From a virus (Duplodnaviria > Caudoviricetes), in the IMG/VR virus record IMGVR_UViG_3300021074_000002, positions 2,083-66,082 of that record: 64,000 nucleotides of DNA; one strand, written 5' to 3'. A program made the position numbers and the translations under genes. Numbering within the stretch: the stretch's first letter is position 1; each line of letters opens with the position of its first letter. Shown piece after piece: positions 862 to 44,471 of the stretch. The notes below the pieces were generated by a model, which saw only the letters and a program-made list of their open reading frames with translations, was not told the DNA's origin and did no database searches.

Positions 862-874
862 ACATAATATAGCT
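862..874 (-). promoter_or_regulatory. AGCTATATTATGT motif, candidate phage regulatory element
   Basis: Identical 13-mer at 51144-51156; both copies lie upstream of structural genes on the minus strand. Confidence 0.45.
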
Positions 875-26900: not shown

Positions 26901-27666
26901 GATCAGCACTTCCAGCACCTTTTAAATAACTCATAAATCCAGCCTGTGCTTTAGGTATACCTCCTCCATAATAGTAGTTTTTAATTTGACTATCATTGAG
27001 TGGTTCAAAACCCCCATCTGAGTATATATCATTAGGATAATATGTGTTTTGAATCTCTGTAGGATTTCCTCCTACTCTATTTAACAATGCACCATCTTTA
27101 GCAAGAGGATTTGTTCCTGCTCCATAGATAGGAAAAAACTCTTCACCTGTATTTACAGGCATCATGGCTTTTCTTTTTTTAGTCATGTTGTCTGCCATTT
27201 GACGATTGATGTCAATGTCTTTTGTTCTGGAAGCATCTAATTGAACATTACTAACAGCAAGACTTTGTTCTGCTCTATCCTTTTCATCTTGTTCTTCTTT
27301 GAATGCCATAACTCCTTTTACTATTCCTGAGGCAGGTCCAGCTAACATACTAAGATCAGGTCCTCCTTTAGATGTAGGAGAAGTCGAAGAAGCAAGTTGC
27401 TGGTTTTGAAGAGCTGATACAGATATAGGAGAAAATCCTTTACCTTGCATCATTTGTAGATTATCTTGTCTAGTAAGATCACCACCAATGTTACGTGCTT
27501 GTCCAGATACATCCTGCAAAGCTCCACTCATTATGTTTAAACCTTGTTGAGCTTTTTTGAACTCTTTACCATGAACTTTCATAAATGCTTCTTCTGAAGG
27601 ATATTTCTTGTAGAAGTCATTGATATCTTTAGCTTTAGATATCTTAAGAATCATATCTTTAGTCAT
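23992..27666 (-). CDS. Virion cargo protein (crAss cargo-1-like) with repeated xxGG/AQxG motifs
   Basis: 1224 aa; GNSHDES...VEVERGEP motif, Gly/Ala hydrophobic helices, Q/N-rich C-terminus. Confidence 0.65.
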   Translation of the reverse strand: MTKDMILKISKAKDINDFYKKYPSEEAFMKVHGKEFKKAQQGLNIMSGALQDVSGQARNIGGDLTRQDNLQMMQGKGFSPISVSALQNQQLASSTSPTSKGGPDLSMLAGPASGIVKGVMAFKEEQDEKDRAEQSLAVSNVQLDASRTKDIDINRQMADNMTKKRKAMMPVNTGEEFFPIYGAGTNPLAKDGALLNRVGGNPTEIQNTYYPNDIYSDGGFEPLNDSQIKNYYYGGGIPKAQAGFMSYLKGAGSADLSQAAGMAFGNNAGSQMGKGLGDAAKMIPGIGPIAGALAAPVLSAIGGGIDQLWGPAGKIKKANKVTDQNVGMMGMQGMGKGIQQQNSSFMEDGGWVSHDWLPQVITNFGEHSMRSLMRPDPTMDTLRAGGHLQRYTPPSEEAMQTYAMGGDLKTHWGGHAETMSQNPYLPEGGETVMFRGNSHDESDGRGNTGIGVTYGDNPVEVERGEPAMKLQDGGSPDSSLVVFGNLKIPNEYVSILGDDKAKGMKFKSYVTDLSKTEAKQNKTIDKASSYLEDFDPRSSFEKLTMASQQANILGANMTLKDIAGKKQKAADLQQAINDTAKENGYEADALARGQIKYAKKGITIAQNGDRASWDIPGRIGDWTDENIFNPIGNKLGEFYQNNTSENTRNAISSIGQFLSDLNNAPVDRTARPGSVYAERPMYTGVAPAPALAVVKGGKAATAVATEVTEAMEAAKKLTAEAKLAAEAIRVGKKSKKAIAAAEKLAAEARAAEVKAKGLTPGVNLEGKSSTVKNRSSMSPITKGILKGAGVASVIGIGSHYNKKNEQSKPLSKDPSKYTIPGAVLPTYNDSIKPSSVPSTNKGNPLYNRMQDTFNQERKGFEYGGEIAQGGDSVAWKPIWATTPIYLPWDQSTNSRIPGLTDAEKMTDAEIAAAQKKQSIKPSGKKATTIKKADPLPVIDPLAGVINPLGEDINLPQYDFDVSGMNPEYLPYKQTRKEFPWQQLMGEVLPYLRPSDDEELDPRQLMGEMYALSNNQQEPVYAQGFNPQLTTPYDISMQDVLNKNQADFRAAQRTMGYNPAAQANLAAQQYQANQGVLGDQFRANQEMQNKTYAQNRQLMDQAQMTNLGIFSQQADKQSQAKSNTKAQIQAALQSISAKMLENEAKNKELKTYENLYNYRFGNDQRAQNWNPMAQFNMAGNARNNTAVPQGFEATYKQLPDGSYEVDKYTKKKEKSKNGSIVKLFK

Positions 27667-28300
27667 TGTGTTTTAGTATTAAATTACAAAAATGTTTTAG
27701 TTCAGACATTGATAGATTACTTTTCATAATATTGATTATAACACAAAGTAACTGTACATTATCTTTTGTATATCCTAAAGAAGGATTAATTTTATCGACA
27801 CTTATATTAGTTTGTATTCTTCCTTTAGATCTAATGTATGTCATTTTTTCTTTTGAAATTGCACATTCTCCATTTTGATTATTGAACATATCTATTAAAA
27901 ATTCCACAGTTAGCTCAAATTTTAAATTTTTAGTTCGAGATCTTGATTTGATTCCATTTAATATATCTTTTATATAAAGTTGTAAATTTTCACTATCACT
28001 ATATCTATTATATCTAAGAGGGTCTTTCATTACACACTTCTTACATCTATGTTGAAATCCTGTACTAGAATCATTTCTTTTATGGAAATTTTCAATAGTT
28101 AAAGGAAGTGTAATGTTACATGTAGAACATGTCCAAAGATTATCATTTAAATATTTTTGTTCTTTTAAAACGTTTATATTTCTTATTTTAGCAGCACATA
28201 TTTTACATTTATTAAAATAACCATCTTTAATACTTGGATTCTTCCAAAAACTATCAATTGATAAATTTTTCTTACAAAGTTTACAAGTTTTAAAATTCAT
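27659..28300 (-). CDS. His-Me finger (HNH-like) homing endonuclease with Zn-ribbon repeats
   Basis: CxxC repeats; CAIS...ISVDKINPSLGYTKDNVQLLCVIINIMKS. Confidence 0.75.
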   Translation of the reverse strand: MNFKTCKLCKKNLSIDSFWKNPSIKDGYFNKCKICAAKIRNINVLKEQKYLNDNLWTCSTCNITLPLTIENFHKRNDSSTGFQHRCKKCVMKDPLRYNRYSDSENLQLYIKDILNGIKSRSRTKNLKFELTVEFLIDMFNNQNGECAISKEKMTYIRSKGRIQTNISVDKINPSLGYTKDNVQLLCVIINIMKSNLSMSELKHFCNLILKHND

Positions 28301-28301
28301 G

Positions 28302-31070
28302 TTATTTATATTTTTCTAGCCATTTAGAAGATTGACCAAAGTTATTAAAATTAGTAAGTTGATCCAATTTTTGTAATTGATTTCCATTTTTTGACACAGG
28401 GAATTCTTGTACCTTTTTACCCTTAAATTTATAGTCTTTTCCTGGAAGCATCATTTTCTTGTCTCCAGTATCAGATACTCCTAGAAGAGGTTGATTAACC
28501 CCTTTCATGGTAATATATGGGCTATCTATCTCTACAGGATTTCCCCAATTATCAGGATTCCAATAGCCATTATTATCTTGAACTATTCCTCCTAATTGCA
28601 TACTTCTAGGCAACCAATCTAGTCCCTCTTGATAGAATGACATTTCTTGTCCATTCTGTGCTATAGGAATTTCTCCACCATTCTCTTGTTTAGGAATTTC
28701 TTTATATCCTTGTAACCAATTTTGTTTATAAAAAGTATAATTTGGGTTTAACATATCTAAAGATTCGTTAGGGGTAGCAATCATTAAATCTTTATCGTTT
28801 GCTGTACTTCCTACACCTTTCATTTTTGCTTTTGACTCCACCATATATGGACCCCCATATCCTTTAGATACATATTTTTCTCCTGTTTGAGGGTTTCTTC
28901 CCCCACTACCAGGTGTAGAATAATCACCATCTAATATTCTACCTTTACCAAAATAAGGTTCTGGATAAGCATGTGGTTTTTTAGATTTAATTACACCACT
29001 TTGCAATGCATCATCATATCCTTTTTCTCCAAGCATTCTATAATATGCTTCAGGATTTGCTTTAAACGCTAAAGGATTTATTTTATAAGTATTCTTTAAA
29101 GCTGTCTCTTCTGTAAGATATTTCCCTATTTTTTTTGCTCCTTGTTTAATTGCCTGTTTTCCTACTGTACCAGCAATTCCTGCAAGAGGAAGAGCAATAT
29201 CTGTTATAGGATCAATATCAGAATAATCAACTCTTCCAGAACTCTTCTTAGCAATTCTATTACGTTCCATGTTCTCAAATTGGAATTTACCTTCTGGAGA
29301 GTTTCTGAATTCTTCAAAATTCTGTAGAATTTGTGGTTGAATTTGTTCCCCACCTTGAGCAGAAGGCATTGTCTTCTTTGCATGTTTTCCTTCAGATGGT
29401 GTTGATCCTGTACGTGCGTATGTGAATCCTACAGATCCTGGCATACTACCACCCATCTGCATTGTAGATTTACCAGTATTTATATAGTTTTCTAGTTTAC
29501 CAAATGATTCTTTTATTTTAGGATCTTGTAGATATGTTTTTCTTGCATCTGGCCAGTAACGTGATTTTTCAAATTCTTCAGGGGTACCTTTAAATAGTAA
29601 TCCTCTTATCTGACCATCAACCCAGTTACTCCATGCTTGATCTTTTCCATCTTTACTTCCAGCATCTCCTGCACCAGTTTTATAATCATGTTCAAATTCA
29701 TTATTGAAATCACTATTTTTATATGCATTTGCTACATTTTCTCGTAATTTAGAATAAGTAGAATCAGAATTTTTCATTCCATGAAGCATATCTAACATGA
29801 TACTCTGTTCATTATTATCTTTTGGATTATATATAATACCATGAGTACCTAGTTTAGGATGTCCTACAGTATAATTATCATATCTAATTGAATCTTGTTC
29901 TGGAGAAAAGTATTCAATATCTCCTACACCAGTTTTTTCTCTTGTAAATGTAGTATCTGGTTTTATTGTAACATCTCCTAAATTCTTTAATGCAGGATAT
30001 TTATTAAAGATAGATTCTTTAATACTATCTTGAGGCATACTACCACCATTTTCAAACTGGCCCCCCCATGCAGGAGACCAATTCCTACCCTTTGTATTGT
30101 ATCCTTGTCCTACAAAATCCTTAGGAATAGACACAGAGGAGTTATTGAAGTTTGGTTGATGCTCATGCATCTTACCACCAGAATTAAGTTTACTTAATTC
30201 TTTTCTTTTTGAATCTATTGCTAATTTTATTTTATCTATTGGTATATTCCCTTGAAAATAATCATTAAGAATTGGAGCAACAGCTTTGTGTGTGTCATAC
30301 TCCATTTGTCCAGGGATGTTATATGTTTCCTGTTGTCCTTTGGCTGTAAAATATGGATGTTTAATCCAACTAGATATCCCAGAAATAATCTCAGAACCTT
30401 CTTGTTTATTTCTATAAGCATGGCTATACTCACTTATATCTGGAGGAATCTTATTTAACCCAGCCCCCCTTTTACTATCTTGTTCATGTAAACCTATTTC
30501 ATTAAGCATTGGGTTAAAATATTCTCTATTAGATACACCTTGTGTTCTAAATTTTTTTCCATAGGAAGAGTTCTGTATTTCTTTAAACTTCTGATCCCTT
30601 AACTTACGTATTTCAATAGGGGTAAGCCCTCTCTCTGCACCAATCTTTTTTGAAGATTTATCTGCCATTGCTATTGGGGATTCATGAACCCATTCTTTAT
30701 CTATATTTTCATAATTTGGGTTACCTCCTAACTGATTTAAGTTTATTAATTTTAATAACTTAGTAGAGTCAGTTATGTTAGTTTTATTAGCAGTAACTCT
30801 TTTAACCATTTCAGATTTGGTGTAATCAGAAACATCTAAATCGTCAAGTGTTTGTTTTATTGATTGTTTTTTAGGATTTAAACCAGCATCGTGCATTGCA
30901 AAATATTCTTGACCTTGTGGAGTTGTTGTAAGCCACTTGTTTAAATTATTTATTATTGCAGGACTTTCGTTAGTGTTTAATCCAATAGTACTATTGGCTA
31001 CCCCAATATTATTGTAACTCTCTTGAAGAATCTTTGGAGACTCTTCATAAGCATCTAACCAACCTTTCAT
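28302..31070 (-). CDS. Modular virion cargo protein with inserted domains delimited by xxGG motifs
   Basis: 922 aa; WLDAY and WLEKY at the termini; ITMKGV...LLGVSDTGDKKMMLPGKDYKF C-terminal domain; about 10 xGG/AQxG motifs. Confidence 0.6.
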   Translation of the reverse strand: MKGWLDAYEESPKILQESYNNIGVANSTIGLNTNESPAIINNLNKWLTTTPQGQEYFAMHDAGLNPKKQSIKQTLDDLDVSDYTKSEMVKRVTANKTNITDSTKLLKLINLNQLGGNPNYENIDKEWVHESPIAMADKSSKKIGAERGLTPIEIRKLRDQKFKEIQNSSYGKKFRTQGVSNREYFNPMLNEIGLHEQDSKRGAGLNKIPPDISEYSHAYRNKQEGSEIISGISSWIKHPYFTAKGQQETYNIPGQMEYDTHKAVAPILNDYFQGNIPIDKIKLAIDSKRKELSKLNSGGKMHEHQPNFNNSSVSIPKDFVGQGYNTKGRNWSPAWGGQFENGGSMPQDSIKESIFNKYPALKNLGDVTIKPDTTFTREKTGVGDIEYFSPEQDSIRYDNYTVGHPKLGTHGIIYNPKDNNEQSIMLDMLHGMKNSDSTYSKLRENVANAYKNSDFNNEFEHDYKTGAGDAGSKDGKDQAWSNWVDGQIRGLLFKGTPEEFEKSRYWPDARKTYLQDPKIKESFGKLENYINTGKSTMQMGGSMPGSVGFTYARTGSTPSEGKHAKKTMPSAQGGEQIQPQILQNFEEFRNSPEGKFQFENMERNRIAKKSSGRVDYSDIDPITDIALPLAGIAGTVGKQAIKQGAKKIGKYLTEETALKNTYKINPLAFKANPEAYYRMLGEKGYDDALQSGVIKSKKPHAYPEPYFGKGRILDGDYSTPGSGGRNPQTGEKYVSKGYGGPYMVESKAKMKGVGSTANDKDLMIATPNESLDMLNPNYTFYKQNWLQGYKEIPKQENGGEIPIAQNGQEMSFYQEGLDWLPRSMQLGGIVQDNNGYWNPDNWGNPVEIDSPYITMKGVNQPLLGVSDTGDKKMMLPGKDYKFKGKKVQEFPVSKNGNQLQKLDQLTNFNNFGQSSKWLEKYK

Positions 31071-31726
31071 TTGTATGATATTTGAGAAGTGAATGTCTTT
31101 TCAACACCCCAATTATTTAATCTATACATTAATATATTGTATGGAATATTTAAAGATTCTGACCACTGTTTCATATTTTTTATTACTCCTTTATATTCGA
31201 TTATTCGATTACTTCTTCTATTGTTACAATTTTCTTTTCTTGTTATCCATCTACAATTAGATAGTTCATAATTTCCAGCATTATCTATTCTATCTATTTC
31301 TAGCCCTGGACTGTATGTTAAATACATATCTTCAATAAAATTATTAATATCACACCATCTTTCACACAATTTGATTCCTCGTTCTCCATAATCTTTATAA
31401 TGTTTATTTTTTACATTATTACATCTGTGCAACATTGCACACCAGATATAATACAAGGGATGTTTATGTAAACCATGTGTTGTATTCTTAAGTCCTTGTT
31501 GCCCTGTTTTCCATCGCATGTAGCATCCACAAGATTTAGTATTTCTATTCTTTAAACTACATATAACTGCCTTAAACTCTTTTCCACATACACATTTAAA
31601 CAATCCCTGTCTTCTATATAAATATCTTTCTTTACTCTTACTAAAATAAATTTGAGGTTCTATGTCCTTAATAAATAAACATTCCCCAATTTTACTACCT
31701 TCTACATAAGCGATCCTTGTTTTCAT
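31067..31726 (-). CDS. HNH-type homing endonuclease
   Basis: CVCG...TKSCGC...YYIWCAMLHRC...YGERGIKLCERW...IDRIDNAGNYELSNCRWITRKENCNN. Confidence 0.85.
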   Translation of the reverse strand: MKTRIAYVEGSKIGECLFIKDIEPQIYFSKSKERYLYRRQGLFKCVCGKEFKAVICSLKNRNTKSCGCYMRWKTGQQGLKNTTHGLHKHPLYYIWCAMLHRCNNVKNKHYKDYGERGIKLCERWCDINNFIEDMYLTYSPGLEIDRIDNAGNYELSNCRWITRKENCNNRRSNRIIEYKGVIKNMKQWSESLNIPYNILMYRLNNWGVEKTFTSQISYK

Positions 31727-31780: not shown

Positions 31781-32644
31781 TTATTTATAACTAATTTGAC
31801 TTGAAGTTATAATAAGTTGAGATACAATGTGAATCGAACTATCGTTGTCAAGAGTCCATCTTATTTTACAATCTTTCGCTCTAAGAGGACTTTTTACAAA
31901 ACTTCTGTTTCCATATTGCATATTTGCCTGGTTTAATATTCCATCGTAGGAAAGGCTCTCACAACTGGTTATGGCAATTGGAACACTTCTGTCTTTTACT
32001 GCATCTACAAAATTATTCAGTTGATAGAAATCATCGCTTTTTGTGTATATAATAACCTTGCTATTAGCTTTATAGATAGGATATGCATTGTACGCCTGCA
32101 AGTTATTTTTTGGTTTGGGAACCAATTCTAATAGTCCTGTACATTGTTGACTATTATAAATTATTAATTTATTAAAGTATTGATTATCAATGAGAACCTT
32201 GCTGGTATAAGAAAATACCCCTGTCGTATCAGGTATATATTTCCATACTTTATCATAACTTTTGATGTTCTGAAGGATCTCTGTATTGGGTAAAGTGGAG
32301 ATAGGATATTCAATGATATAAGGAGCAATGACACCATAATAAGAATTAAAAGAGTTACTAACTAAATGCCTCCACAGACAAGCTGTTCTAGTTGATACAA
32401 ATGGTGTGTTAACCATTTCTAAAGGAGATATTGTAGTAATACTCATTGTTTTTACTGTCTTACAATCTCCTGTAGAAGTTAATGTAATTAATTCAACATT
32501 ATCGTTTACCTCATAACTTATACCTTGAATAAGAGTGTGTATAGATACATCAGTAGCTATGATAATTCCCCATTCATCATTTATTGTGAAAGGACCAACT
32601 TTAGTACTTGCTTTTGTAAGCTTTATAATTATCGTCTTTGACAT
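31781..32644 (-). CDS. C-terminal part of tail muzzle/stabilisation protein, preceded by a small beta-rich domain
   Basis: LWRH...NSYYG...PYIIEYP...FNKLIIYNSQQCTGLLEL resembles the muzzle C-terminus; N-terminal about 70 aa is similar to the N-terminus of 40715-41566. Confidence 0.6.
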   Translation of the reverse strand: MSKTIIIKLTKASTKVGPFTINDEWGIIIATDVSIHTLIQGISYEVNDNVELITLTSTGDCKTVKTMSITTISPLEMVNTPFVSTRTACLWRHLVSNSFNSYYGVIAPYIIEYPISTLPNTEILQNIKSYDKVWKYIPDTTGVFSYTSKVLIDNQYFNKLIIYNSQQCTGLLELVPKPKNNLQAYNAYPIYKANSKVIIYTKSDDFYQLNNFVDAVKDRSVPIAITSCESLSYDGILNQANMQYGNRSFVKSPLRAKDCKIRWTLDNDSSIHIVSQLIITSSQISYK

Positions 32645-32655
32645 ATCATATTAAT

Positions 32656-35600
32656 TTAGATCTCATCTGCTACACCAATTATTTCACACATTGGTATAGA
32701 TGTTGTAGTACTTGTACTGGTTGATGTTGAGGTACTTGTACTGGTTGATGTTGAGGTAGATGTACTAGTTGATGTTGAGGTACTTGTTGATGTTGAGGTA
32801 CTTGTTGATGTTGAGGTACTTGTTGATGTTGAGGTACTTGTTGATGTTGAGGTACTTGTACTAGTTGATGTTGAGGTAGATGTACTAGTTGATGTTGAGG
32901 TACTTGTTGATGTTGAGGTACTTGTTGATGTTGAGGTACTTGTACTAGTTGATGTTGAGGTAGATGTACTAGTTGAAGTACTTGTAGTAGTAGTAGTAGT
33001 AGTATAACAGTATCCAAAAGAATTTGCACGACTCTGACCATTTGTAGCAATATCTATCCAAGCTAGAGCATCTGCATCTGCCTGAGAAGTAATTGATGTA
33101 TATATACATGGTGGAATGGTATAAGTATATAGACTACCAATTTCTGGTGGAATACAATCATCCTTCTGAAACTCTTTAGATGCTTCTACATTACAATATA
33201 TAGTTGTAGTTGTGGTAGTAGTACTACTTGTTGTACTAGTACTAGTAGATGTGGTAGTAGAAGTAGATGTAGACGTAGAAGTAGAAGTGGTAGTAGAAGT
33301 ACTCGTTGTTGTTGTCGTTGTTGTAGTGGTATTAGGAACAGGAATTCCTGTAATGAATTCAAATTCAAAATCATCACAACAATTATTAAGACCAGAATAG
33401 AAGAAATTATTCTCAGCTATATACCAATTAGGAATATAAGAGTGAAATGAGATCCAACTCTTAGTATTCATATTATATGAAAGTGTCCAACTCTTATTAC
33501 AGAAATATGTACCATCTGTTAATTCTACAGGAGTCTTTCTTACAAAATTTATAACATTTTCCTCCAAATAGAAAATACGTGTTATAGCATTATACTTAAT
33601 ACTACTGGCATATTCAGGATGGGGAATATAATCTAACTTAGTAATAATAACCCTGTCATATTTTGAATCGTAGACCCCATGAAGACCTACACCAGTAAAG
33701 TTGTTGTCAACATCCACTTCTGGATAATACCTTAGGATTTCAAACGCTAGGTGGTCTGTAAAGAATCTATTCATTCCTGATCCAAATCCAGCAAGATCTA
33801 CAGCTTCTCTACCAGCAATTAAAAAGATCTGACCTCTCTTAGCATCTAATGTTATCTGTCCCTGTGGAATCTTTAATAACATTTTATGTTGAGCTCCAAT
33901 ATATCCAAGGTCTGTTTCAGCAAAATCAATAGGAGGATTCTCAAATAATCTTGGATTTCCTACATATGCAGCTTGTGGATTACTAGTATCGATTGTTAAC
34001 AAGTTATCATATAATAATGTCTTGTTTTCAAATCTTGCCAGAATAGCTCTATTCTGTATTCCATCTAAAGATGTAAGTTTTCCAAAGTTTTGTGGAAAGT
34101 CATATAAAGAAGTAGCTCTGTAAGACAACCAGGCATTAACTTTCAAATCAGCGTTTCCTTCCTGATGATCAGAATAGACAGCTCTAAATGGATAATATGT
34201 ATGACAAGGTTGGTTCCAATCTACAGGAAGATGTGTAAATATATTCTCTTTATTTTGTTTGGAGAAAGTAGTATTATAGTAATATGTATTATCCTGAACA
34301 ATTGGAACAAATGTTTCTTGTACCCAATTATCAGGAATACCAGAACTTACATGTGGCCAGAATTCACCTTCTCTATTATTGAATGCCTGACGAAGATCAA
34401 GATTATAAGAACTCTCACAATAGAAACTTGGAATACCATATGCAAACATATAGAAATATCCATCGTAGTACATCAATGTATTACTGTTTGTAGTTTCTCC
34501 TGATAATATTGTAGATGTAGTACTTGTTGTAGAACTTGTACTGGTAGATGTACTAGTTATAGGTTGAGCTATAAGATTATTAGGGCAATCAAAATTGTGA
34601 GCTTTGTATGAAATGATATTTGATAATAGTCCACCATTTGACATATAATCCTTTTGAATAGACCTAGCTGAGTGCCAATATTTTGGATAGGCAATATTAC
34701 CAATCTCATCATAAAATATATCACTATCATCAGCTGCATTAACTCTATTGCCAATAAAGAATGGAAGTTTAGTTTTAAATGTAAATCTTCCAATAAATGT
34801 ATCACCACCAAATACTGTACCTCCTCCTGAATTAGCTAAGAGTTTTTGAAACCCTGTATCAATAGTGTTATATGAATAGATCTGTCCCCATTGATTAACT
34901 ATCTGATTCTTGATAGAAGCATAATAGGAGATGACATTAATATCTGTATCATTTCCTGGAATACTACATTTACCTATTTCAGATATAGTAAATCTGGAAT
35001 AGTCTGTAACTATAGGAATTCCTGAGGAATTAATACTAGGACTATCACTTGGAAAAGGAGTATCCTTTACTGTTTTTAAGAATATAGAACTTTCACGATT
35101 GTAATTATTAATATCATGAATATCTCCTACATTCTGCACTCCTGGGATTAAGTATCTTGCTATATCAAGAGTTCTTTGTTTTACTCCAATATTATTTTGA
35201 ATACTTGAATTGTAATTATAATCAGCTATTGAATTAAATGAATATGCAAAGTTTCGTCTGGTAATACCATTGATATATATCTGAAGATATGCTTGATAAG
35301 TAGTAAACATAGCAGTACCATCAAATGGACTTGTTAGATTACCTATGGTATTAGAACTATCAAGAGCTTTTCTTTGAGCATCTTCTGTGATAAGTCTATA
35401 TCTAGCATTATCTTTAACCTCTGTAAAGTGAGCTCTACCAGATCCATATATAACACTTTCTAATTTAAGAATATCTCCTAGAAAAGGTTGTCCAAAGGAA
35501 GTCTCTGGAGAATTAAAAATTTGTCTAAGTTTATCAGATACTGCAGGCTGTTGAGAAGCTGTTCCACAATTAATAGAAGAATTAACTGCACTAATAAATG

Positions 35601-37842
35601 AAGAATCAAAAGTTGCTGCTCCTGCTACCCGTTGAGGATAAGTACCTCTAACAACATTAATTGTTAAATTCTTATTACATCCTATTCCAGTAGAACAAAG
35701 TTCATATGTTGTGTATCCTATAATAGGATCTTCCCATCCTACAGTAACATTTCCAAAAACACTACTATTATTAATTCTCCATATATCATAATTAGCAAGT
35801 CCTACTATACCAGTAGCTGGACTTAATATAACAGGAGCAGATGTTGAACAAATTTCAATAGTATCAATAGATGTAAGTCGTTTTACACCTTGGATGTTTG
35901 TATTACAATCCATGTATTGATAATCCAAATAGTTAGGACCACCTAAAGGATCTGTTACAAGTAGTGTAGGTTGTACATTGTATACATTGCAGAGTTGAGT
36001 ATATGCATTGTTTGTCTTTGTCAAGAAAGGATCTTCTCTAAGATCATTGTATGGATAGTTAGGATAATAATACTTCTGTTGATCTCTTTCATATTCTCCA
36101 ACATTTCTTAAAATACCTTTTGCTACAATAGATTTATTGGTTCCTCTATCCCCTCTTACAATTTTAAACTCTACAATCTGATCCTTCTGATCATCTGTTA
36201 AGGATGACATTTGGATGAGTCTGATAATTTGAGTAGCGTCAACATGTACACCAATGGGAAACATTGCATCATTTCCCATAGTCATAGTACTAGCAGATAC
36301 GAATGTTTTTGTCTCAAAAATAGGACTAACAAGTACATCAGGAAATTTATGATGTCTAATCTTTTGACCAGCAAGATCTCCCCATAATTCTATATTACAA
36401 GGATATTCTTCTGTTGATTCCCAATATGCAAATTCACCAGTTTGATAGGGTCCTTTATAACTAGCAGAATTTGTATAAGTTGGTGAATAACCTATAGTAG
36501 ATGCTGTATTATATATTTTCCAATATGGAGAATATCCTACTCCTCCACTAATATAATCAGGATTTCCAATAAAATCAGAATTTGTATCAGGAACATCAGG
36601 TAGCATTTCATTAAGACCTTTGATTCTTCCAGGAATATGAAATCCATCTGTCTGTTTTCCATTCTTAAGTAAAAAGACTATTTCAAAAGGATAGATTTCA
36701 TCTCTAAGATATCCTCTAAGATTTGTAGCATTTTCTTCATTAGCATAACTTTCTGTAGCTGGGATTCTCCATGTTTCCCATTGTAGAGTAATCTGACTTG
36801 CAATTTGTTGATAGTTGATCCTGTCGATAGAAATAAGGTCATCCCAAATAAGAATATCTTGAGCAGTAGTTACATCTCCAGCAATATCATAATATGGATA
36901 CTTTTCAAAGATATCATTGATTGCTAACTTGATAGTACTAACATCTTGTCCTGTGTAGGTAATTTGTTGTGAGATGGCATCAATATAATATGTACCAACT
37001 AGTTCTACAGAAGTAATCCCATTAATAGTTTTAAGAACAGCAAGATTAAAGTATTGAAATTGTCCTGTACCATCTAGATTAGTTACATCAATTATAATAG
37101 ACTTTCCAACAGGATAGTTAAAATTTACGGAAGTAATATGAATGTCTACAATAGGTGTAGGATTTGTAATTGAATAGTATGATGTATATGGATTACTCTG
37201 ACCATCACAATATTGTATAGCAAATTGATATGTTCCAGAGATTAGATTACCACCAGACACAATATTAGAAACTAAAAGTGAAGGAATAGAGAAATTAGGT
37301 TGAATCTTCAATTGATTACAATCTACATCATCTGTAAATTCAGGATTACAAAAAGGACTTCCTGATTTTAGTATTTTAGGAATATCATCAATGTCCAGAT
37401 ATCTTCTAGGATTAAGTGCATCTGTCCAATATATCTCTGTACCACAATTTGTAATCTTGTGAACACACTTTTGAATAGGATAGTTAATATTAAAATTGAG
37501 ACATGGTGCATTTACTAAAACATGATAGCCACAATCATTATGATCCATATATCCAATCTGACTAGCTCCTGTATAGGGATTAGTTAAAAAGAAAATATGC
37601 TTGTCTTTCTCTTGAATAAAATGTTCACCAATTAATACAAGATCTTTAGGAAATGAAAGACAAAATTCATTACCTTCTTCATTTTGATAGTTAACAGCGT
37701 TAGCATCAAAATTTTCAACAGCAGCATTTAACGCATATGTGAGACTCCCTTTCTTAATTTGATTAGGAGTTTGGTCCATGTTAAGACCAACTGTAGCATT
37801 ATTATACTCTTGTTTTATATTACCTTGTTCCTGTTCAGCCAT
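32656..37842 (-). CDS. Tail muzzle/stabilisation protein (P22 gp10-like) with DUF5977-like domain and TS repeats
   Basis: 1728 aa; GLNMD...YALNA N-terminus; YLRDEIYPFEIVF; SWTLSY...WISFHSYIP; YCNVEASKEFQKDDC...SQADADALA...GQSRAN...C (DUF5977-like). Confidence 0.8.
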   Translation of the reverse strand: MAEQEQGNIKQEYNNATVGLNMDQTPNQIKKGSLTYALNAAVENFDANAVNYQNEEGNEFCLSFPKDLVLIGEHFIQEKDKHIFFLTNPYTGASQIGYMDHNDCGYHVLVNAPCLNFNINYPIQKCVHKITNCGTEIYWTDALNPRRYLDIDDIPKILKSGSPFCNPEFTDDVDCNQLKIQPNFSIPSLLVSNIVSGGNLISGTYQFAIQYCDGQSNPYTSYYSITNPTPIVDIHITSVNFNYPVGKSIIIDVTNLDGTGQFQYFNLAVLKTINGITSVELVGTYYIDAISQQITYTGQDVSTIKLAINDIFEKYPYYDIAGDVTTAQDILIWDDLISIDRINYQQIASQITLQWETWRIPATESYANEENATNLRGYLRDEIYPFEIVFLLKNGKQTDGFHIPGRIKGLNEMLPDVPDTNSDFIGNPDYISGGVGYSPYWKIYNTASTIGYSPTYTNSASYKGPYQTGEFAYWESTEEYPCNIELWGDLAGQKIRHHKFPDVLVSPIFETKTFVSASTMTMGNDAMFPIGVHVDATQIIRLIQMSSLTDDQKDQIVEFKIVRGDRGTNKSIVAKGILRNVGEYERDQQKYYYPNYPYNDLREDPFLTKTNNAYTQLCNVYNVQPTLLVTDPLGGPNYLDYQYMDCNTNIQGVKRLTSIDTIEICSTSAPVILSPATGIVGLANYDIWRINNSSVFGNVTVGWEDPIIGYTTYELCSTGIGCNKNLTINVVRGTYPQRVAGAATFDSSFISAVNSSINCGTASQQPAVSDKLRQIFNSPETSFGQPFLGDILKLESVIYGSGRAHFTEVKDNARYRLITEDAQRKALDSSNTIGNLTSPFDGTAMFTTYQAYLQIYINGITRRNFAYSFNSIADYNYNSSIQNNIGVKQRTLDIARYLIPGVQNVGDIHDINNYNRESSIFLKTVKDTPFPSDSPSINSSGIPIVTDYSRFTISEIGKCSIPGNDTDINVISYYASIKNQIVNQWGQIYSYNTIDTGFQKLLANSGGGTVFGGDTFIGRFTFKTKLPFFIGNRVNAADDSDIFYDEIGNIAYPKYWHSARSIQKDYMSNGGLLSNIISYKAHNFDCPNNLIAQPITSTSTSTSSTTSTTSTILSGETTNSNTLMYYDGYFYMFAYGIPSFYCESSYNLDLRQAFNNREGEFWPHVSSGIPDNWVQETFVPIVQDNTYYYNTTFSKQNKENIFTHLPVDWNQPCHTYYPFRAVYSDHQEGNADLKVNAWLSYRATSLYDFPQNFGKLTSLDGIQNRAILARFENKTLLYDNLLTIDTSNPQAAYVGNPRLFENPPIDFAETDLGYIGAQHKMLLKIPQGQITLDAKRGQIFLIAGREAVDLAGFGSGMNRFFTDHLAFEILRYYPEVDVDNNFTGVGLHGVYDSKYDRVIITKLDYIPHPEYASSIKYNAITRIFYLEENVINFVRKTPVELTDGTYFCNKSWTLSYNMNTKSWISFHSYIPNWYIAENNFFYSGLNNCCDDFEFEFITGIPVPNTTTTTTTTTSTSTTTSTSTSTSTSTTTSTSTSTTSSTTTTTTTIYCNVEASKEFQKDDCIPPEIGSLYTYTIPPCIYTSITSQADADALAWIDIATNGQSRANSFGYCYTTTTTTTSTSTSTSTSTSTSTSTSTSTSTSTSTSTSTSTSTSTSTSTSTSTSTSTSTSTSTSTSTSTSTSTSTSTSTSTSTSTSTSTSTSTSTSTSTSTTTSIPMCEIIGVADEI
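32700..33004 (-). repeat. (Thr-Ser)n coding repeat with near-perfect 18-nt units
   Basis: GTTGATGTTGAGGTACTT repeated on the + strand; a further tract lies at 33203-33330. Confidence 0.9.
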
Positions 37843-37851
37843 TTGTCTTAA

Positions 37852-38817
37852 TTAATTACGTCTTCTACCATATCTGTTAGTACGATTTGGTAGTTCATAC
37901 ATATTGAAACGATTTAGATCTTGTCTGATCCTTCTTTGCTTTGCATATACATCTTGCTTCTTAATCTCAATCATGGCCATGATGAAAGCTTCATCAGAAA
38001 GTTGTTTGTAATAAACTAACTTCTGTTGTAGTTGTTGAAAGGTTTCATCATTTATTTGATTTGTAAGAGTCTCAAATACTTTGTATTTAATGAATGCTTC
38101 TACATATTCTCTAACACGATAGTTGTCTGGAATCATTTGATTACCTACCTGATCATATTCTGTTGCATAGAATACAAGATGAACTATTCCAGATCTGAAA
38201 TTTGTGACAAACTTATTATCTCTAACATCAAATGAATCACGAGCAGCACCTCCAGGAGTAAACTCATTAATAACAGGAGCTGGTTGATAAAACTGCCAAG
38301 CATTATTATAATCTACATCACAATGTTTTCTTGCAGAGAGATTTCCTGGTTTAAGTAAATACTGTCTTCTATAAGATCTTGGGATTGAGTGATTTGTCTT
38401 GTATACAGCTTGTATTATCTCTGGCATACACTCTACACAATTAGGATCTGGGCAACGATGACTATTGCAAGGTTTACCACCTATTGTTAATGGAGATACC
38501 TGAATAGTAGTAGAGAAAGTTTGTGAATAAAAAGAATTTGGTGTTTGGTAAGGTCTACCTTGTTCTTCAGTACATGCCCAAGCTTCTCTTACAGCATGAA
38601 AATTATCTGGAAGTCTAGCTTCAAAGTCTTCAATGCATAAAGCTCCTTCAGATATTACATAGGAGGATCTACCAAGTTTCCTCAAGCACTTATCTAAGTA
38701 GGTAGGAAACATAAGATCATCTACTGCTCCCGAATCGAAGTAGCTTTTTAACTCTTCTTTAACAGTTGAATAAACAATCTCTGGTGTTATAAATTCGTAG
38801 CGATAGTAGTATGACAT
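37852..38817 (-). CDS. Tail ring/tubular protein
   Basis: 321 aa; position, ARLPDNF and PDNYRVREYVEAFIKYK motifs resemble crAss-like ring proteins. Confidence 0.6.
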   Translation of the reverse strand: MSYYYRYEFITPEIVYSTVKEELKSYFDSGAVDDLMFPTYLDKCLRKLGRSSYVISEGALCIEDFEARLPDNFHAVREAWACTEEQGRPYQTPNSFYSQTFSTTIQVSPLTIGGKPCNSHRCPDPNCVECMPEIIQAVYKTNHSIPRSYRRQYLLKPGNLSARKHCDVDYNNAWQFYQPAPVINEFTPGGAARDSFDVRDNKFVTNFRSGIVHLVFYATEYDQVGNQMIPDNYRVREYVEAFIKYKVFETLTNQINDETFQQLQQKLVYYKQLSDEAFIMAMIEIKKQDVYAKQRRIRQDLNRFNMYELPNRTNRYGRRRN

Positions 38818-38820
38818 AGC

Positions 38821-39297
38821 TTAATGTTTCCATTCATTATATAGATGCTGATACTGATCATTAGTTTTTAAATAGTGCGACAAAAGTCTGGAAGTATTTC
38901 TACAAGCTTTAAAATACCAGAAATTAGCATGTTTAAATCTTGCAGTTTGTCTAAACCACATCCATCCAAAGAAAAATCCCTCTGTATGGTAGTTGAAATT
39001 GTATATAAGTTTACCTTTTGCTTTTGTTTTTTGCCAATCGACAGGAAGATTAAGCTTCTCTTTTCCATCGTGAGTAACTATTTTTTTTCTTTTCTTTTTA
39101 TTAATAGAAAACTCACCAATTCCAAAAGGAAGTTTAGCTTTGTCTCCTGTCTCTAATATGTATTCTCTAAATGATTCATTAAATGTATAAACAATATTTC
39201 TCCATTCATCATATGTAAGTCTTATGAATATATTATTCTTACAGAAATTAATGTAATTATCTCTACTTCCACTTCGCCAACCAACCTTAGTTCTCAC
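38821..39297 (-). CDS. IHF/HU-like protein
   Basis: ILETGDKAKLPFGIGEFSINKKK...VDWQKTK; conserved position in crAss-like tail modules. Confidence 0.65.
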   Translation of the reverse strand: MRTKVGWRSGSRDNYINFCKNNIFIRLTYDEWRNIVYTFNESFREYILETGDKAKLPFGIGEFSINKKKRKKIVTHDGKEKLNLPVDWQKTKAKGKLIYNFNYHTEGFFFGWMWFRQTARFKHANFWYFKACRNTSRLLSHYLKTNDQYQHLYNEWKH

Positions 39298-40023
39298 TTA
39301 TTTTAAATTTGGTGTATTGGGGGCCTGACCATCAATGTTATCCTGAGTAAGATCTGACTTAATTCTAAAATATGTGCTAAGTAATTTTTGTGAAGTAAGT
39401 TCTAGTACTTGCTTCTCTAGATATCCAGGAACAAATGATTCTCTATCTAAAGGATTTTTACACCAATCCTCATCTGAAACACTAGGAATTCCACATCCAC
39501 ATTCAGGATACCTAAGTTCACTTGGAATATCTTCCTCAAATAAAGCTGCAATTCTTACAGCTTGTATCATTGGATTAGTAATATATAGATAGTCATTACT
39601 AACCCAGAAGTATTCTTCCTTCTTGATGATAGGAAGTTTTAGAAGATTGGCATATCTATTAATAGTGATTTCTTTAACCTTCTTTCCTTGACCACTCATT
39701 GCATTTATAGAATATACACCTTGAATGACATATTGATAGTTTCCTTCAGATATACGTGGTAGTTTGTATTTGCTACGTGCTATGGAACAGGGATCTACAT
39801 AATCACAACATTCAGAAATAGAGACTTCACACATCTCTAAGCAAGGTAGAGTGGTAAACACTGTATCAGTGGCCCAGAGTTTTCTTTTATCTAACTCTCG
39901 TTTTATTAATAACATTGCATTTTGTTTACATTCTGCAAAAATTGCCCGATCTGTTATTAATGTGTCGGTGGAGATCAACTTGTGCATTGATCTTACACTA
40001 CTTACAAGTTCTCTACCTGTCAT
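39298..40023 (-). CDS. Tail ring/structural protein
   Basis: 241 aa, Cys-containing (LPCLEMCEV...RSKYKLP); syntenic with crAss ring proteins. Confidence 0.55.
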   Translation of the reverse strand: MTGRELVSSVRSMHKLISTDTLITDRAIFAECKQNAMLLIKRELDKRKLWATDTVFTTLPCLEMCEVSISECCDYVDPCSIARSKYKLPRISEGNYQYVIQGVYSINAMSGQGKKVKEITINRYANLLKLPIIKKEEYFWVSNDYLYITNPMIQAVRIAALFEEDIPSELRYPECGCGIPSVSDEDWCKNPLDRESFVPGYLEKQVLELTSQKLLSTYFRIKSDLTQDNIDGQAPNTPNLK

Positions 40024-40519
40024 TTTTTTTTGTTTTATATTTACCTCTTTTTCTACCTAAAAGAGAACTACTTATTTTATCTTTTATTTCTTGAGGATGA
40101 GTTAATCCTATATGAGATTTATTTCCTATTCCATAACTATTACCCTTCATTTTTATAGACATAGTATCGTGTTGATTACTATTCCATTTTCTACCAACTA
40201 GTCCATCTCCGCCCAAAGTCTGATTATATCCAGTATAAAAACTATCAAATATTTCTATATTATAAACTTCTCTACTATTTAACTCAACTTCTTCACATTC
40301 TTCAAGTATCTGAAATTTAAAACATTCCTTACCATATTTATTAAATGCTCTTTGTAAATGTTTATTATAATGACAATCTTCTTCTAACATTTTAAAATGA
40401 GAAACTTTTCTTTTAAATATATCTACAGCTTGTCCAATATATACTTTACCATCTATAATGTTGTAGATTTCATATATGCCACAAATAGCATTCTTTTCTC
40501 TCTCGTAAGGTTTTTTCAT
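40013..40519 (-). CDS. GIY-YIG homing endonuclease with NUMOD3-like tail
   Basis: GIYEIYNIIDGKVYIGQA...HYNKHLQRAFNKYG...GYNQTLGGDG...HPQEIKDKIS. Confidence 0.9.
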   Translation of the reverse strand: MKKPYEREKNAICGIYEIYNIIDGKVYIGQAVDIFKRKVSHFKMLEEDCHYNKHLQRAFNKYGKECFKFQILEECEEVELNSREVYNIEIFDSFYTGYNQTLGGDGLVGRKWNSNQHDTMSIKMKGNSYGIGNKSHIGLTHPQEIKDKISSSLLGRKRGKYKTKKNDR

Positions 40520-40562
40520 CTTACCAGTTTAATTAAACTAAAAATTTTAGATCAATTTGCAG

Positions 40563-40648
40563 TAAAGATATATTTTTATAAAGACTTTATCAATAGTGTA
40601 TTAATCAAATTGGTTATTTACAACAACTTATTATAATCAGATTGATTA
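40563..40648 (-). promoter_or_regulatory. Bacteroidetes-type promoter with two upstream TAATCA-N3-TGATTA-like palindromes
   Basis: TTG-N20-TATCTTTA (40563-40593); palindromes at 40602-40616 (one mismatch) and 40634-40648. Confidence 0.55.
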
Positions 40649-40711
40649 GAAAGAAGAACTCCCCCAAGCTTACACCTGGGGGAGACATCTTGGAAACCAA
40701 CAAACCAAGAC
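40649..40711 (-). terminator. Intrinsic terminator preceded by a second hairpin
   Basis: CTCCCCCA-loop-TGGGGGAG followed by TTCTTCTTT; upstream TCTTGG/CCAAGA hairpin. Confidence 0.7.
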
Positions 40712-40714
40712 GTT

Positions 40715-41566
40715 TTAAACTGGATAATCAAACGTAGAGGCTGCTGATAAGTATACTATCCCACCCCATGTAACACCACCATCTATACTAAATTCAACAA
40801 GAAAAGTATTTCCAGGTATATTTGTTACACCAAATGTAGATGTTATACCTGTATAGTTTTGTACAGTTCCTGCAGTAGAAACAGAAGGAACTAAATTTAT
40901 AAGAGTCGTTCCTGATCCTAAGGTAACATTAGAAACTCTAACTTTAATATTCTCATTACTAGCAGTACCATTCTTAACATCAAAATTATAATTAGCTCTA
41001 TCAGTTAATGGATTTCCAATAGTGAAAGAGTTAAGATATAACGCTACTTCATTAGGTAAAGCAGTCGTAGTTGTACTTGTTGTTGTACTAGTAGACGTTG
41101 ATGTACTAGTAGAGGTACTTGTACTAGTGGAAGTACTAGTACTTGTTGATGTGGAAGTACTAGTACTTGTTGATGTGGAAGTACTAGTACTTGTTGACGT
41201 AGAAGTACTTGTACTAGTGGAAGTACTTGTTGACGTAGAAGTACTTGTACTGGTTGATGTACTTGTACTCGTTGATGTAGAAGTACTGGTTGATGTACTT
41301 GTACTAGTTGATGTACTGGTACTGGTTGTAGTACTATTTATAGGTAAATCTATAAGAGTTGTACAAACTCCTATGGAAGTTATTCTAACAAACGTTGCAG
41401 TGGTAGGAATTGCAGGGTAATCTACTCCAGCTATAGCAATTAATGATGCTTTACTTTGAGCAGGAGCAAGTACTGTAAAAGTAGAAGTGTCAGTATCCCA
41501 ATATTTTACTTCAAAGGTAGGTCCTGTATCTACACCAGTAGCTGTTAATCTTACATTTATATCCAT
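40715..41566 (-). CDS. TS-repeat fibre/decoration protein (small N-domain, about 90-aa TS linker, beta-rich C-domain)
   Basis: 283 aa; TS tract at about 41065-41332. Confidence 0.7.
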   Translation of the reverse strand: MDINVRLTATGVDTGPTFEVKYWDTDTSTFTVLAPAQSKASLIAIAGVDYPAIPTTATFVRITSIGVCTTLIDLPINSTTTSTSTSTSTSTSTSTSTSTSTSTSTSTSTSTSTSTSTSTSTSTSTSTSTSTSTSTSTSTSTSTSTSTSTSTSTSTSTSTSTTTSTTTTALPNEVALYLNSFTIGNPLTDRANYNFDVKNGTASNENIKVRVSNVTLGSGTTLINLVPSVSTAGTVQNYTGITSTFGVTNIPGNTFLVEFSIDGGVTWGGIVYLSAASTFDYPV

Positions 41567-41600
41567 TTTGTTATTTTTTAATAATGTTAACTATATTAAT

Positions 41601-41999
41601 TTAGAGTTCATTTGCATTACCCTCTATCCCACACACTGGTATAGGTGTTGTAGTACTGGTTGTTGTAGAACTAGTTGATGTAGAAGTACTGGTTGATGTA
41701 CTTGTAGATGTAGAAGTACTGGTTGATGTACTTGTACTTGTAGATGTACTTGGTATTTCTGAAACACTTCCTTCAAGTGTGCAAGTGAGACTATGATACA
41801 TATCAAATAGTTCACATATTTTAGCATCTATTTTCTCAAGAGCCAAAGTTAGATTACTATTATTTCGTATATCTGTACATGAAAGATTTGGTCCAACATA
41901 TGTTACATTATCAGATATAATACAATGAGTACTACATGGATCATTACATCCACATGCCTCAGTGGGGACAGCAAAAGCACCTATTATATTGTATTTCAT
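41601..41999 (-). CDS. Small Cys-rich fibre adaptor with TS linker
   Basis: 132 aa; VTYVGPNL...LTLALEKID domain; TS tract flanked by CTLEGSVSEI and CGIEGNANEL. Confidence 0.65.
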   Translation of the reverse strand: MKYNIIGAFAVPTEACGCNDPCSTHCIISDNVTYVGPNLSCTDIRNNSNLTLALEKIDAKICELFDMYHSLTCTLEGSVSEIPSTSTSTSTSTSTSTSTSTSTSTSTSTSSTTTSTTTPIPVCGIEGNANEL

Positions 42000-43175: not shown

Positions 43176-44471
43176 TTATGTAGCATAATAACATCTTGCT
43201 GGAGTAGTCATTGTAATCCAAGTAGGTCCATCCTGAACTAATGGAATTGGAGTATGATCTATCAATTCTGTTTCTTTTAATTCTTGGGATAACCATTCTT
43301 GTGTACCAATACAAATTGTAGCATAAACTTGACCATCGTTACCTACATATGTACTTGTTTCTCCTGGATTTAATATTGTAGAATCTTTTACTAAACGTAT
43401 ACCTAAACCAGTATCATATGATGCCCCTCCAGTAGTAGTTACCTCTGGATTAAAATCATCGTAACTCATCGCATATTGACTTGGTCCATTTGGATCAGAA
43501 CACCAAAGTATACCTATTTGTTTAATATTTGCAAATTCAGGAGTGCTATTACGATAGCCTGTTCCTCTACCATTAAATCCGTAAGTATTTAGACCGTTAT
43601 TAGTATTCCAATAAATAGTACCTGATTCTTTTAATTGTATAGCAGCTGTAGCAGCTCCACCCACAGCTGTACATAATGCATCATATTCTAAATGAGTAGG
43701 AACATGCCAATCTGTATTAGCGATTGTAGGCAGAGCATAAGCATTATACAATCCAAATTCAGTAATTAGAAGTGTAGTGGTAGTGCTAGTAGTAGTGGTA
43801 GAAGTACTACTAGTAGTTGATGTACTTGTACTAGATGTAGAAGTAGAAGTACTTGTAGACGTTGATGTACTTGTACTAGATGTAGAAGTGCTTGTTGAAC
43901 TACTTGTTGAACTACTTGTTGATGTTGAAGTACTAGTGCTTGTACTAGTAGAAGTACTAGTTGATGTCGAACTACTTGTAGAGGTTGATGATGTACTCGT
44001 ACTTGTAGATGTACTAGTACTTGTAGATGTGCTTGTAGATGTAGAAGTACTAGTTGATGTAGATGTACTAGTAGATGTAGAAGTGCTTGTTGTTGTACTT
44101 GTACTTGTTGATGTACTTGTACTTGTGCTGGTAGATGTACTAGTACTTGTTGATGTAGATGTAGATGTTGTTGTAGTGTTAGGAAATGTTGTTACTGTAT
44201 GTGTAGATCCTGATGTATATCGTCTTACTTTACTGGCAATCATGGGAATTGTAAACTCTCCAGCATACTCAGGATTACAATATTTATATATTAAAATTCT
44301 TTGGTAGTTCAAAAGATCAAACATACCAGTGCTATCTATTTGTAGATTAAGCATAAAGATTGTATTGTTATATAATCTCTTTGCCATACTAGTTATAGTA
44401 CAACTAATCTCTTCCAATAGAGTAGGAATACTATCACACTCTATACAATTTGTAAGCCTTGGAGTTAGCAT
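43176..44471 (-). CDS. Structural protein with about 135-aa TS linker and Fibrobacter succinogenes major (FISUMP)-like domain
   Basis: GLYN...WHVPT...GG...LKE...N.YGF...G.R...GIRLVKD, and DGQVYATICIGTQEWL. Confidence 0.75.
   Translation of the reverse strand: MLTPRLTNCIECDSIPTLLEEISCTITSMAKRLYNNTIFMLNLQIDSTGMFDLLNYQRILIYKYCNPEYAGEFTIPMIASKVRRYTSGSTHTVTTFPNTTTTSTSTSTSTSTSTSTSTSTSTSTSTTTSTSTSTSTSTSTSTSTSTSTSTSTSTSTSTSTSSTSTSSSTSTSTSTSTSTSTSTSTSSSTSSSTSTSTSSTSTSTSTSTSTSTSSTSTSTTSSTSTTTTSTTTTLLITEFGLYNAYALPTIANTDWHVPTHLEYDALCTAVGGAATAAIQLKESGTIYWNTNNGLNTYGFNGRGTGYRNSTPEFANIKQIGILWCSDPNGPSQYAMSYDDFNPEVTTTGGASYDTGLGIRLVKDSTILNPGETSTYVGNDGQVYATICIGTQEWLSQELKETELIDHTPIPLVQDGPTWITMTTPARCYYAT
43772..44178 (-). 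repeat. (Thr-Ser)n low-complexity coding repeat
   Basis: Runs of ACT/ACA/AGT/TCA/TCT codons; the longest TS tract in the window. Confidence 0.9.

Follow-up and report, generated by a model that had tools for sequence, protein, structure and literature searches.

How do the separately made parts of a phage tail find and hold one another? The question is raised by a 64,000-nucleotide (nt) stretch of the virus record IMGVR_UViG_3300021074_000002 (positions 2,083 to 66,082; hereafter, the window), in which two proteins end in a threonine/serine (Thr/Ser or TS) linker and a short cysteine-bearing peptide, and the gene next to each of them starts with a small β-domain (the N-domain, ND). A first-pass annotation of this DNA had proposed that the peptide is a donor strand completing the fold of the downstream domain. 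In the window and in related loci, we observe that the gene of a conserved structural protein, the muzzle, is split in two, that peptide and domain each belong to a family, that the genes carrying them are adjacent, and that both carry a cysteine without partner in its own chain. The short Cys-bearing peptide and ND probably hold separately made tail parts together, and their docking would be a new form of modular tail-fibre attachment. Docking of a tag on a domain, perhaps locked by a disulfide, is our best reading of the locus, and we give it an even chance of being right.

Both protein ends are as first described. The 1728-amino-acid (aa) P0001 (32656..37842, minus strand) ends (TS)n-IPMCEIIGVADEI, the terminal peptide or 'plug' lying at 32659..32697 (minus strand) before a stop codon at 32656-32658. 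The 132-aa P0003 (41601..41999, minus strand) ends (TS)n-PIPVCGIEGNANEL and holds an internal copy, TCTLEGSVSEI. It consists of a Cys-rich N-module and a helix, which are also found at fibre N-termini, followed by the internal motif CTLEGSVSEI (41754-41783), a TS linker (41646-41750), and the terminal motif CGIEGNANEL (41604-41633), all on the minus strand. Common to both ends is a Thr/Ser linker followed by C-x-I-x-G-x-A-x-E-[IL]. Translated in six frames, the window contains the pattern C.[ILVM].G.[AVSG].E[ILVM] three times, only at these places in P0001 and P0003, while residue shuffles contain it 0.067 times on average and once at most (0/300 reach three). The DNA identity reported to extend past the two stops is literally there, but it does not go beyond chance: TCTAAATTAATAT with at most one mismatch has two matches versus 0.79 expected, 17 of 100 shuffles give at least two, and shared bases after stop codons are nothing out of the ordinary where DNA is AT-rich.

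A wider motif of 10-12 residues, [DN]-C-x-hydrophobic-x-G-x-A-x-[EQ]-hydrophobic, includes the peptide as one of its copies; elsewhere the motif is N-terminal, internal, tandem or C-terminal, and it matched no Pfam or PHROG family. Homologues conserve its alternating core, C-x-[ILFM]-x-G-x-[AV]-x-x-[ILFV], which has the alternation of hydrophobic residues of a donor strand. Homologues of P0003 (itself without a match in the phage collection) keep C-x-hydrophobic-x-G-x-A-x-x-hydrophobic at their end, after the linker, despite a differing tail; others carry a real domain in cis where the terminal motif would stand. The homologue in locus L004 ends at the 'internal' copy, without linker, and is followed by a gene that starts with ND. 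In L040 the motif is repeated in tandem three times, and in the muzzle protein of L003 four or five times, with a period of 12 residues. The motif is also found at residues 17-21 in proteins of 185-255 aa, four residues after ND in one sub-family of ND proteins, and, in P0111, fused six residues before ND. A recurrent C-terminal tail on ND passenger proteins (L026, L030, L040, L052, and others), FC-x-[LF]-x-G-S-V...G-P...I-x-G-x-C, looks like the motif plus a second strand and a closing cysteine.

The two downstream genes indeed start with MSKTIIIKLTKASTKVGPF...ITLTSTGDC (P0002, start 32644) and MDINVRLTATGVDTGPTF...VRITSIGVC (P0004, start 41566). The ND of P0002 is its residues 1-71 (32432..32644, minus strand), as supported by alignment, profile and tree, and that of P0004 its residues 1-77 (41336..41566, minus strand), a sister of the L004 ND with support 100/100. 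The proposed paralogy of the two domains holds insofar as both match an independent family profile, but their pairwise similarity is weak (BLASTP E 0.77; Smith-Waterman score 43 versus 27 +/- 5 in shuffles, reached by 14 of 2000). That profile, built from 82 other family members and leaving out the window's own rows and their closest relatives, finds the ND of P0004 at 49.7 bits (E 1.8e-17) and that of P0002 at 30.6 bits (E 1.7e-11; Z=1 for both). The P0002 domain, which falls in the muzzle-C clade of the ND tree and has no linker after it, shows the invariant G-P-F and S-x-G-x-C in alignment.

From its profile matches, ND is a large, unnamed and virus-only family, defined in this work, with about 75 residues, the signatures G-P-F and S-x-G-x-C, and usually a Thr/Ser linker after it. 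A profile of five NDs run against 1.84 billion proteins returned 1797 representatives at E <=0.001 and 949 at E <=1e-10, with ND starting within the first six residues in 147 of the 150 best matches. The invariant columns of the ND alignment are L7, G15, P16, F18, G47, S64, and C68. The members we looked up are all named 'hypothetical protein', and the Atlas clusters of ND are 100% viral. When 185,579 species genomes were scanned for ND, six loci were found, all on metagenome-assembled genome (MAG) contigs of mixed taxa, so that there is no sign of a cellular home for ND. The NDs of P0002 and P0004 match no Pfam family at E <=0.01, the FN3 profile included, and no PHROG family. P0031, another ND protein, has no match in the phage collection, which thus offers no cultured-phage example. 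Neither ND nor the motif is described in the literature listings on the crAss001 muzzle, Thr-rich Crassvirales tail fibres, phage donor strands and NIOZ-UU157, or in the passages of PMC10172136.

Members of the family typically combine ND, a linker rich in Thr or in Thr and Ser, and varied passenger domains. P0004 is of this kind, with a 91-residue TS linker (41063-41335) and a C-terminal β-rich passenger domain of about 105 aa (remainder of the protein at 40715..41335, minus strand), for which there is no Pfam match above cut-off and no PHROG family. Some members are only ND plus linker, and such proteins measure 85-110 aa. A distant ND (40% identity) lies at about residue 328 of an 854-aa protein, between Pro/Thr linkers (L112 5023-7587; the group L112-L124 is on contigs of 87-288 kb), so ND is not always N-terminal in remote relatives. 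Ten to 20 nt before the ND start codon (ATG), after the upstream stop, a conserved AAATCAATAA stands behind unrelated upstream genes (L005-L084), where it may act as a common promoter or translation signal or belong to a mobile cassette. In the same set of loci, many proteins encoded upstream of ND genes end in a bare Thr linker plus one to three hydrophobic residues (e.g., ...TTTTTTTLI, ...TTTIP).

Does ND need the peptide to fold? AlphaFold2 models it without the peptide as an FN3-like sandwich, with a block pLDDT of 82-97. Aligned with VIA-align to 48,161 representatives of the PDB, the model has nearly all FN3 domains among its top 50 (Z 6.4-7.6, root-mean-square deviation [rmsd] 2.2-2.5, 71-75 residues), values of Z <8 being such that they may reflect a merely common arrangement. 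A Foldseek search against the PDB gave nothing at E <=0.001, and in BFVD only uncharacterised proteins of Virus NIOZ-UU157 and of uncultured phages were found. DSSP assigns six strands to the ND models, versus seven in a canonical FN3 domain.

In our reading, the genes concerned form the tail-appendage region of the window phage, with appendage proteins assembled from interchangeable modules on Thr/Ser linkers. The window and 204 related loci contain 1102 unique open reading frames (ORFs) with at least 400 nt downstream, 35 of which carry the strict motif. Directly after 30 of these 35 comes an ND gene; in three others motif and ND are neighbours within one chain, and two show neither arrangement. 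ORFs that lack the motif precede an ND gene in 152 of 1067 cases (odds ratio 36). Peptide and domain thus co-occur in other phage genomes, as the first-pass annotation had suggested checking. The linkage spans several ND lineages and three protein architectures: the motif may be C-terminal (muzzle fragment, P0003 type), in mid-protein after a helix, or at residues 17-21. On the ND tree, the label 'follows a motif ORF' needs at least seven changes on well-supported branches. Motif and ND gene copies match in number at 2:2 in L054, L070, L078, and L042, 3:3 in L043, and 1:1 in L004, L060, and L107-L109. As a strict rule, equality of the two numbers was rejected, since it holds in only 11 of 16 curated arrays. 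Nor does every motif ORF precede an ND gene: ND proteins with a motif in cis are exceptions, and usually end the array.

Cysteines provide a second line of evidence. Exactly one Cys is present in 85 of 88 aligned NDs, where it is invariant, and the total number of Cys is odd in 200 of 255 ND proteins. In complete motif proteins, Cys outside the motif are even in number in 13 of 15 cases, and in one 250-aa protein the motif Cys is the only one. Motif and ND each carry a Cys without partner in its own chain. Intermolecular disulfides are known to stabilise the crAss001 tail, according to passages of its structure report (PMC10172136).

A third line comes from structure prediction, for one pair only: the ND of P0004, entered with an 88-row alignment, and residues 101-132 of P0003. 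The complex scored 0.58 in three of three runs, against 0.16 for the best of three controls, and a control in which an unrelated protein replaced ND gave 0.00. The runs agree in at least 95% of contacts, with a partner pLDDT of at least 68. In calibration, 58 of 80 solved complexes and 2 of 110 mismatched pairs attained the mark that this pair weakly reached; at 0.60 or below, only 7 of those 80 and both mismatches did so. The multimer check proposed by the first-pass annotation gives weak support to the pairing. From this prediction and the genomic context, we infer that the motif binds ND, as well as the geometry of binding and its disulfide.

One of the joints in the window lies within the muzzle gene. 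P0001 matches the Pfam family PF25731 crAss_MUZ above its gathering score (95.6 bits, cut-off 27, E 3e-27) and PHROG 37948 (E 5.5e-99), and the muzzle of Leptolyngbya phage Lbo-JY46, unsplit and 1654 aa long, aligns through its residues 854-1455 with residues 845-1485 of P0001, which is thereby identified as the N-terminal fragment of a crAss-type muzzle protein. The missing end is found in P0002: by tblastn and BLASTP, its residues 72-285 match residues 1445-1652 of the Lbo-JY46 muzzle, and its residues 78-218 match residues 2058-2191 of the csAssE-Sib muzzle. Both reference muzzles are single ORFs, the coding sequence in csAssE-Sib being annotated as muzzle protein; no single polypeptide spanning the whole muzzle, as in these annotated relatives, was found in the window. 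As muzzle homology is divided over two ORFs, the window muzzle is a split member of the Crassvirales muzzle family. On this homology, P0001 and P0002 are the two halves of one split gene, a relation that had escaped the first-pass annotation, residues 72-287 of P0002 (31781..32431, minus strand) representing the C-terminal 215 or so residues of the muzzle as a separate polypeptide.

The insertion in the muzzle occupies a single site: a TS linker of 43 residues (33202-33330), a DUF5977 passenger domain (P0001 residues 1549-1612; 33007..33198, minus strand; Pfam E 4.9e-18), a second TS linker of 102 residues (32698-33003), the 13-residue peptide, a stop codon, 11 nt, a start codon, and the ND of about 71 residues. 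The muzzle of L003, a 52%-identical relative, is split likewise, with a much larger insertion and an extra small gene. In passages of the crAss001 structure report (PMC10172136), muzzle proteins are described as varying via insertions in the crass and IG2 domains. In relatives, what follows the muzzle N-fragment is usually a gene for a small ND protein and not the muzzle C-fragment, so the partner of the window muzzle tag may be P0002 or P0004. Passengers alternate between cis and trans: a vWA-like domain (TEINIWFDNSGSMNS...) is found inside the 2266-aa L003 muzzle (728-7528), and on the separate ND proteins P0077, P0183, and P0184.

Adjacency, its spread over several lineages, unpaired cysteines, the complex score, and passengers shared between cis and trans all agree with the earlier claim that peptide and N-domain form a recurring coupled pair. 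Under tag-and-domain docking, ND would be a self-folding, FN3-like attachment domain heading separately translated appendage proteins, and the motif in the protein encoded just upstream would be its docking site. The motif would most likely bind by adding a strand to ND, at its edge or surface, after which the docked motif may be fixed by a disulfide that joins its only Cys to the one invariant Cys of ND. In the window, the split muzzle would carry one tag on a tether of about 100 residues, and P0003, a putative small fibre-base protein, would carry two; these tags might be received by the ND of P0004 or by that of the muzzle C-fragment. A more general version, in which aquatic crAss-like phages use a natural tag and catcher, a 10-12-residue Cys tag capturing an FN3-like N-terminal domain before a disulfide locks the two, seems to us plausible but a little short of even. 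If capture works in this way, receptor-binding and decoration modules could therefore be encoded as separate, exchangeable genes plugged onto the muzzle or the fibre base. The tags, which are single or tandem and often end a long Thr/Ser tether, would then set the number of modules recruited by their own number, and the tag/ND joint would be one at which even the conserved muzzle protein can be cut in two.

Several observations weigh against docking. The phages behind the adjacency counts are related and conserve their gene order, and the loci were chosen for ND, so that p-values overstate independence. Copy numbers do not always match (3:2 in L040 and L084, 1:2 in L030 and L091, 2:1 for P0003 in the window). 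Many ND genes lack an upstream motif: the 82 unique upstream tails include 17 bare Thr linkers and 44 classed as 'other', and 36 arrays have no motif and one ND gene. The muzzle fragment of L003 ends without a motif, and yet ND genes come next. In proteins with two motifs the Cys total is even, which would allow the motif cysteines to pair with each other or elsewhere in the chain. The predictor itself rates the complex score a weak pass and printed no interface. Finally, AlphaFold2 leaves the motif undocked in two natural chains that contain both elements and in which ND is confidently folded: in P0028 (ND, a 22-residue linker, and a terminal motif), it has no secondary structure and a pLDDT of about 51-57; in P0045 (ND, four residues, and the motif), it is unstructured, with a pLDDT below 50-55.

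In a rival explanation, the motif would be a self-association or disulfide-knot element of the upstream protein, clasping the chains of a trimeric fibre base or a hexameric muzzle at linker boundaries. ND would then attach elsewhere (to the tail hub, a fibre N-module, or another ND via its lone Cys), and adjacency would only reflect conserved fibre gene order. We regard this explanation as unlikely, but it deserves serious attention. Tandem arrays of two to five copies with a 12-residue period directly follow a helix ending CC, the motif marks several kinds of domain-to-linker boundary, and many passenger domains end in a Cys-to-Cys hairpin closed by a motif-like strand (FC.L.GSV...G.C). The explanation also accommodates the even Cys totals of two-motif proteins and the disorder of the monomeric motif in AlphaFold2, while the frequent pairing of ND genes would fit ND-to-ND disulfides. 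However, single-motif proteins keep one unpaired Cys, which in one of them is the only Cys; the motif is also found at the N-terminus of monomer-sized proteins and fused to ND; and the complex prediction placed the motif tail on ND and not on an unrelated protein (0.00).

Alternatively, peptide and ND might not interact at all. Thr-linker DNA would be a recombination hot spot, the peptide the leftover first strand of a lost passenger, and ND genes would simply land after truncated genes. In favour of this, homing-endonuclease genes follow both window ND genes and the conserved AAATCAATAA precedes ND start codons behind unrelated upstream genes. Linkers also commonly end [ILVA]P before a Cys opening the next domain, and a bare Thr linker plus one to three hydrophobic residues accounts for 17 of the 82 upstream tails and for 25 of the 288 remaining ones. 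Against a leftover stand the divergent P0003 homologues P0005, P0006, P0008, P0018, and P0019, in which the terminal motif is retained in an otherwise variable tail. The retention of the motif in tandem and N-terminal forms, a motif-to-ND link far above background and the weakly supportive complex score point the same way, and we consider the absence of interaction improbable.

Strict donor-strand complementation, as initially put forward, requires ND to be an unstable, incomplete fold to which the peptide supplies the missing strand. The alternation of the motif is a β-strand pattern, the ND model has one DSSP strand fewer than a canonical FN3 domain (six versus seven), and the complex score goes weakly in the same direction. 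Yet ND is modelled without the peptide at the pLDDT given above, although a model does not measure stability, and its alignment with FN3 domains (71-75 residues; Z 7.0-7.6, rmsd 2.2-2.5) covers these completely, the first and last strands included. For many ND proteins there is no motif partner in the vicinity, ND plus Thr-linker proteins of 85-110 aa exist on their own, and the distant ND is embedded between Pro/Thr linkers in its 854-aa protein. Together with the unstructured motif of P0028 and P0045, and with motifs that are not always terminal, these observations speak against the claim that the strand completes ND, and we hold strict complementation to be quite improbable. Least of all would we expect the gene pairs to be joined by stop-codon read-through, by frameshift, or by a split intein with a very short N-part: although the peptide starts with Cys, as an N-intein would, and crAss-like phages are known for stop-codon reassignment, such joining is excluded at the sequence level, as the gaps are of 11 and 34 nt with the genes out of frame, the gap modulo 3 takes all three values in 80 related loci where TAA is often doubled in frame, the window has no tRNA genes, 10 plus 70 residues are too small for a HINT fold of about 130 residues or more, no Pfam intein family is found, and ND lacks a conserved C-terminal His-Asn.

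Pfam and PHROG profile scans identify the window as the structural module of an uncultured crAss-like phage. Its source assembly is a single 66-kb contig, its GC content is 30-39%, and the minus strand holds every gene from about 870 to 58,000. On this strand, the scans recover the large terminase (54351-56381), the portal (51185-53764), the Crassvirus major capsid protein (48265-49827), and the ring proteins 2 (39298-40023) and 1 (37852-38817), with tail fibre-like proteins between the major capsid protein and ring protein 2. One of these, P0025 (42003..43157, minus strand; 384 aa; PHROG tail fibre or tail protein matches), ends ...YYIMYIP and lies directly upstream of P0003, an order common to L004 and many related loci. 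Next to it, a 431-aa protein (43176-44471, minus strand) has a 135-residue Thr/Ser run and then a Fib_succ_major domain, and is thus a tethered passenger without ND or motif.

Four homing-endonuclease-like genes lie within the module, all on the minus strand (27659-28300, 31067-31726, 40013-40519, and 53776-54351), three of HNH or endonuclease VII type and one of GIY-YIG type. Two stand directly 3' of the window ND genes: an HNH gene downstream of P0002 (31067..31726; PHROG 374, E 9.8e-54) and the GIY-YIG gene downstream of P0004 (40013..40519; Pfam GIY-YIG, E 9.5e-07; PHROG 7168, E 2.6e-30). The HNH gene at 53776-54351 lies between terminase and portal. Elsewhere, a single ORF of 5107 aa (5960-21283, minus strand), positioned among crAss-type cargo or RNA-polymerase genes, has AAA_30, PIF1, and UvrD_C helicase domains (Pfam) in its C-terminal part and no Pfam match in its N-terminal 2761 residues. 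Each end of the window cuts a gene: a collagen triple-helix repeat protein (E 6.3e-11; 2-790, minus strand) at low coordinates, and a glucosaminidase-domain protein (E 1e-09; 63508-63999, plus strand) at high coordinates.

Among the closest known systems is the attachment of fibres in crAss001, a phage of the same order, through the same tail module. There, a docking hub holds residues 1-26 of gp22, a short terminal segment, and this first fibre protein in turn carries others (Bayfield et al. 2023, PMC10172136, in the passages on fibre attachment). Such capture of a short terminal fibre segment by a docking hub resembles what we propose. In contrast to what those passages describe, the receiver here would be an FN3-like domain of about 75 aa at the N-terminus of the incoming protein, the tag is on a long Thr/Ser tether or in tandem, and the muzzle gene itself is split. 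Chaperone-usher pili are similar in that a short strand of alternating hydrophobic residues would bind the Ig-like domain of the next subunit, chaining subunits. Unlike in pili, ND is modelled as complete without the strand, the tag may be N-terminal, internal, tandem or C-terminal, and permanence would come from a disulfide instead of fold completion; no chaperone or usher family was found among the 35 window proteins scanned with Pfam.

Other likenesses come from outside phage tails. In the tandem β-zipper of fibronectin-binding proteins, disordered tandem repeats each add a strand to a small β-sandwich module, as might be the case here, where arrays of two or three motifs are followed by two or three ND genes; unlike in the zipper, both partners would be phage proteins of one virion, the modules are FN3-like instead of F1, and the binding is predicted. 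SpyTag/SpyCatcher-type pairs are engineered splits of the CnaB2 domain with a Lys-Asp isopeptide lock. The resemblance lies in a peptide of about 13 residues that would dock as a strand on a small β-sandwich and then be covalently locked, but ND has no invariant triad of Lys, Asp or Glu, and any lock would be a disulfide. Cellulosome scaffoldins, through cohesin-dockerin pairs, also use repeated docking sites to recruit separately encoded proteins, each of which brings one conserved docking module plus a variable domain, often a sugar-binding one, attached through linkers rich in Thr. There is, however, no relation in sequence or fold, the docking site here is a 10-12-residue motif and not a domain, and no cohesin or dockerin family was found by Pfam in the window proteins.

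Tail appendages decide which hosts can be reached, and crAss-like phages are abundant and mostly uncultured. If a docking domain and a peptide tag do join their appendages, this would explain the gene-by-gene swapping of appendage modules, and also why many ND-associated proteins end in bare Thr/Ser tethers. A role for ND would annotate thousands of phage proteins. A disulfide-locked pair, if real, would be a compact natural tag and catcher of possible use in protein engineering. As the split muzzle shows, division is possible even in a structural gene that is a hallmark of the order.

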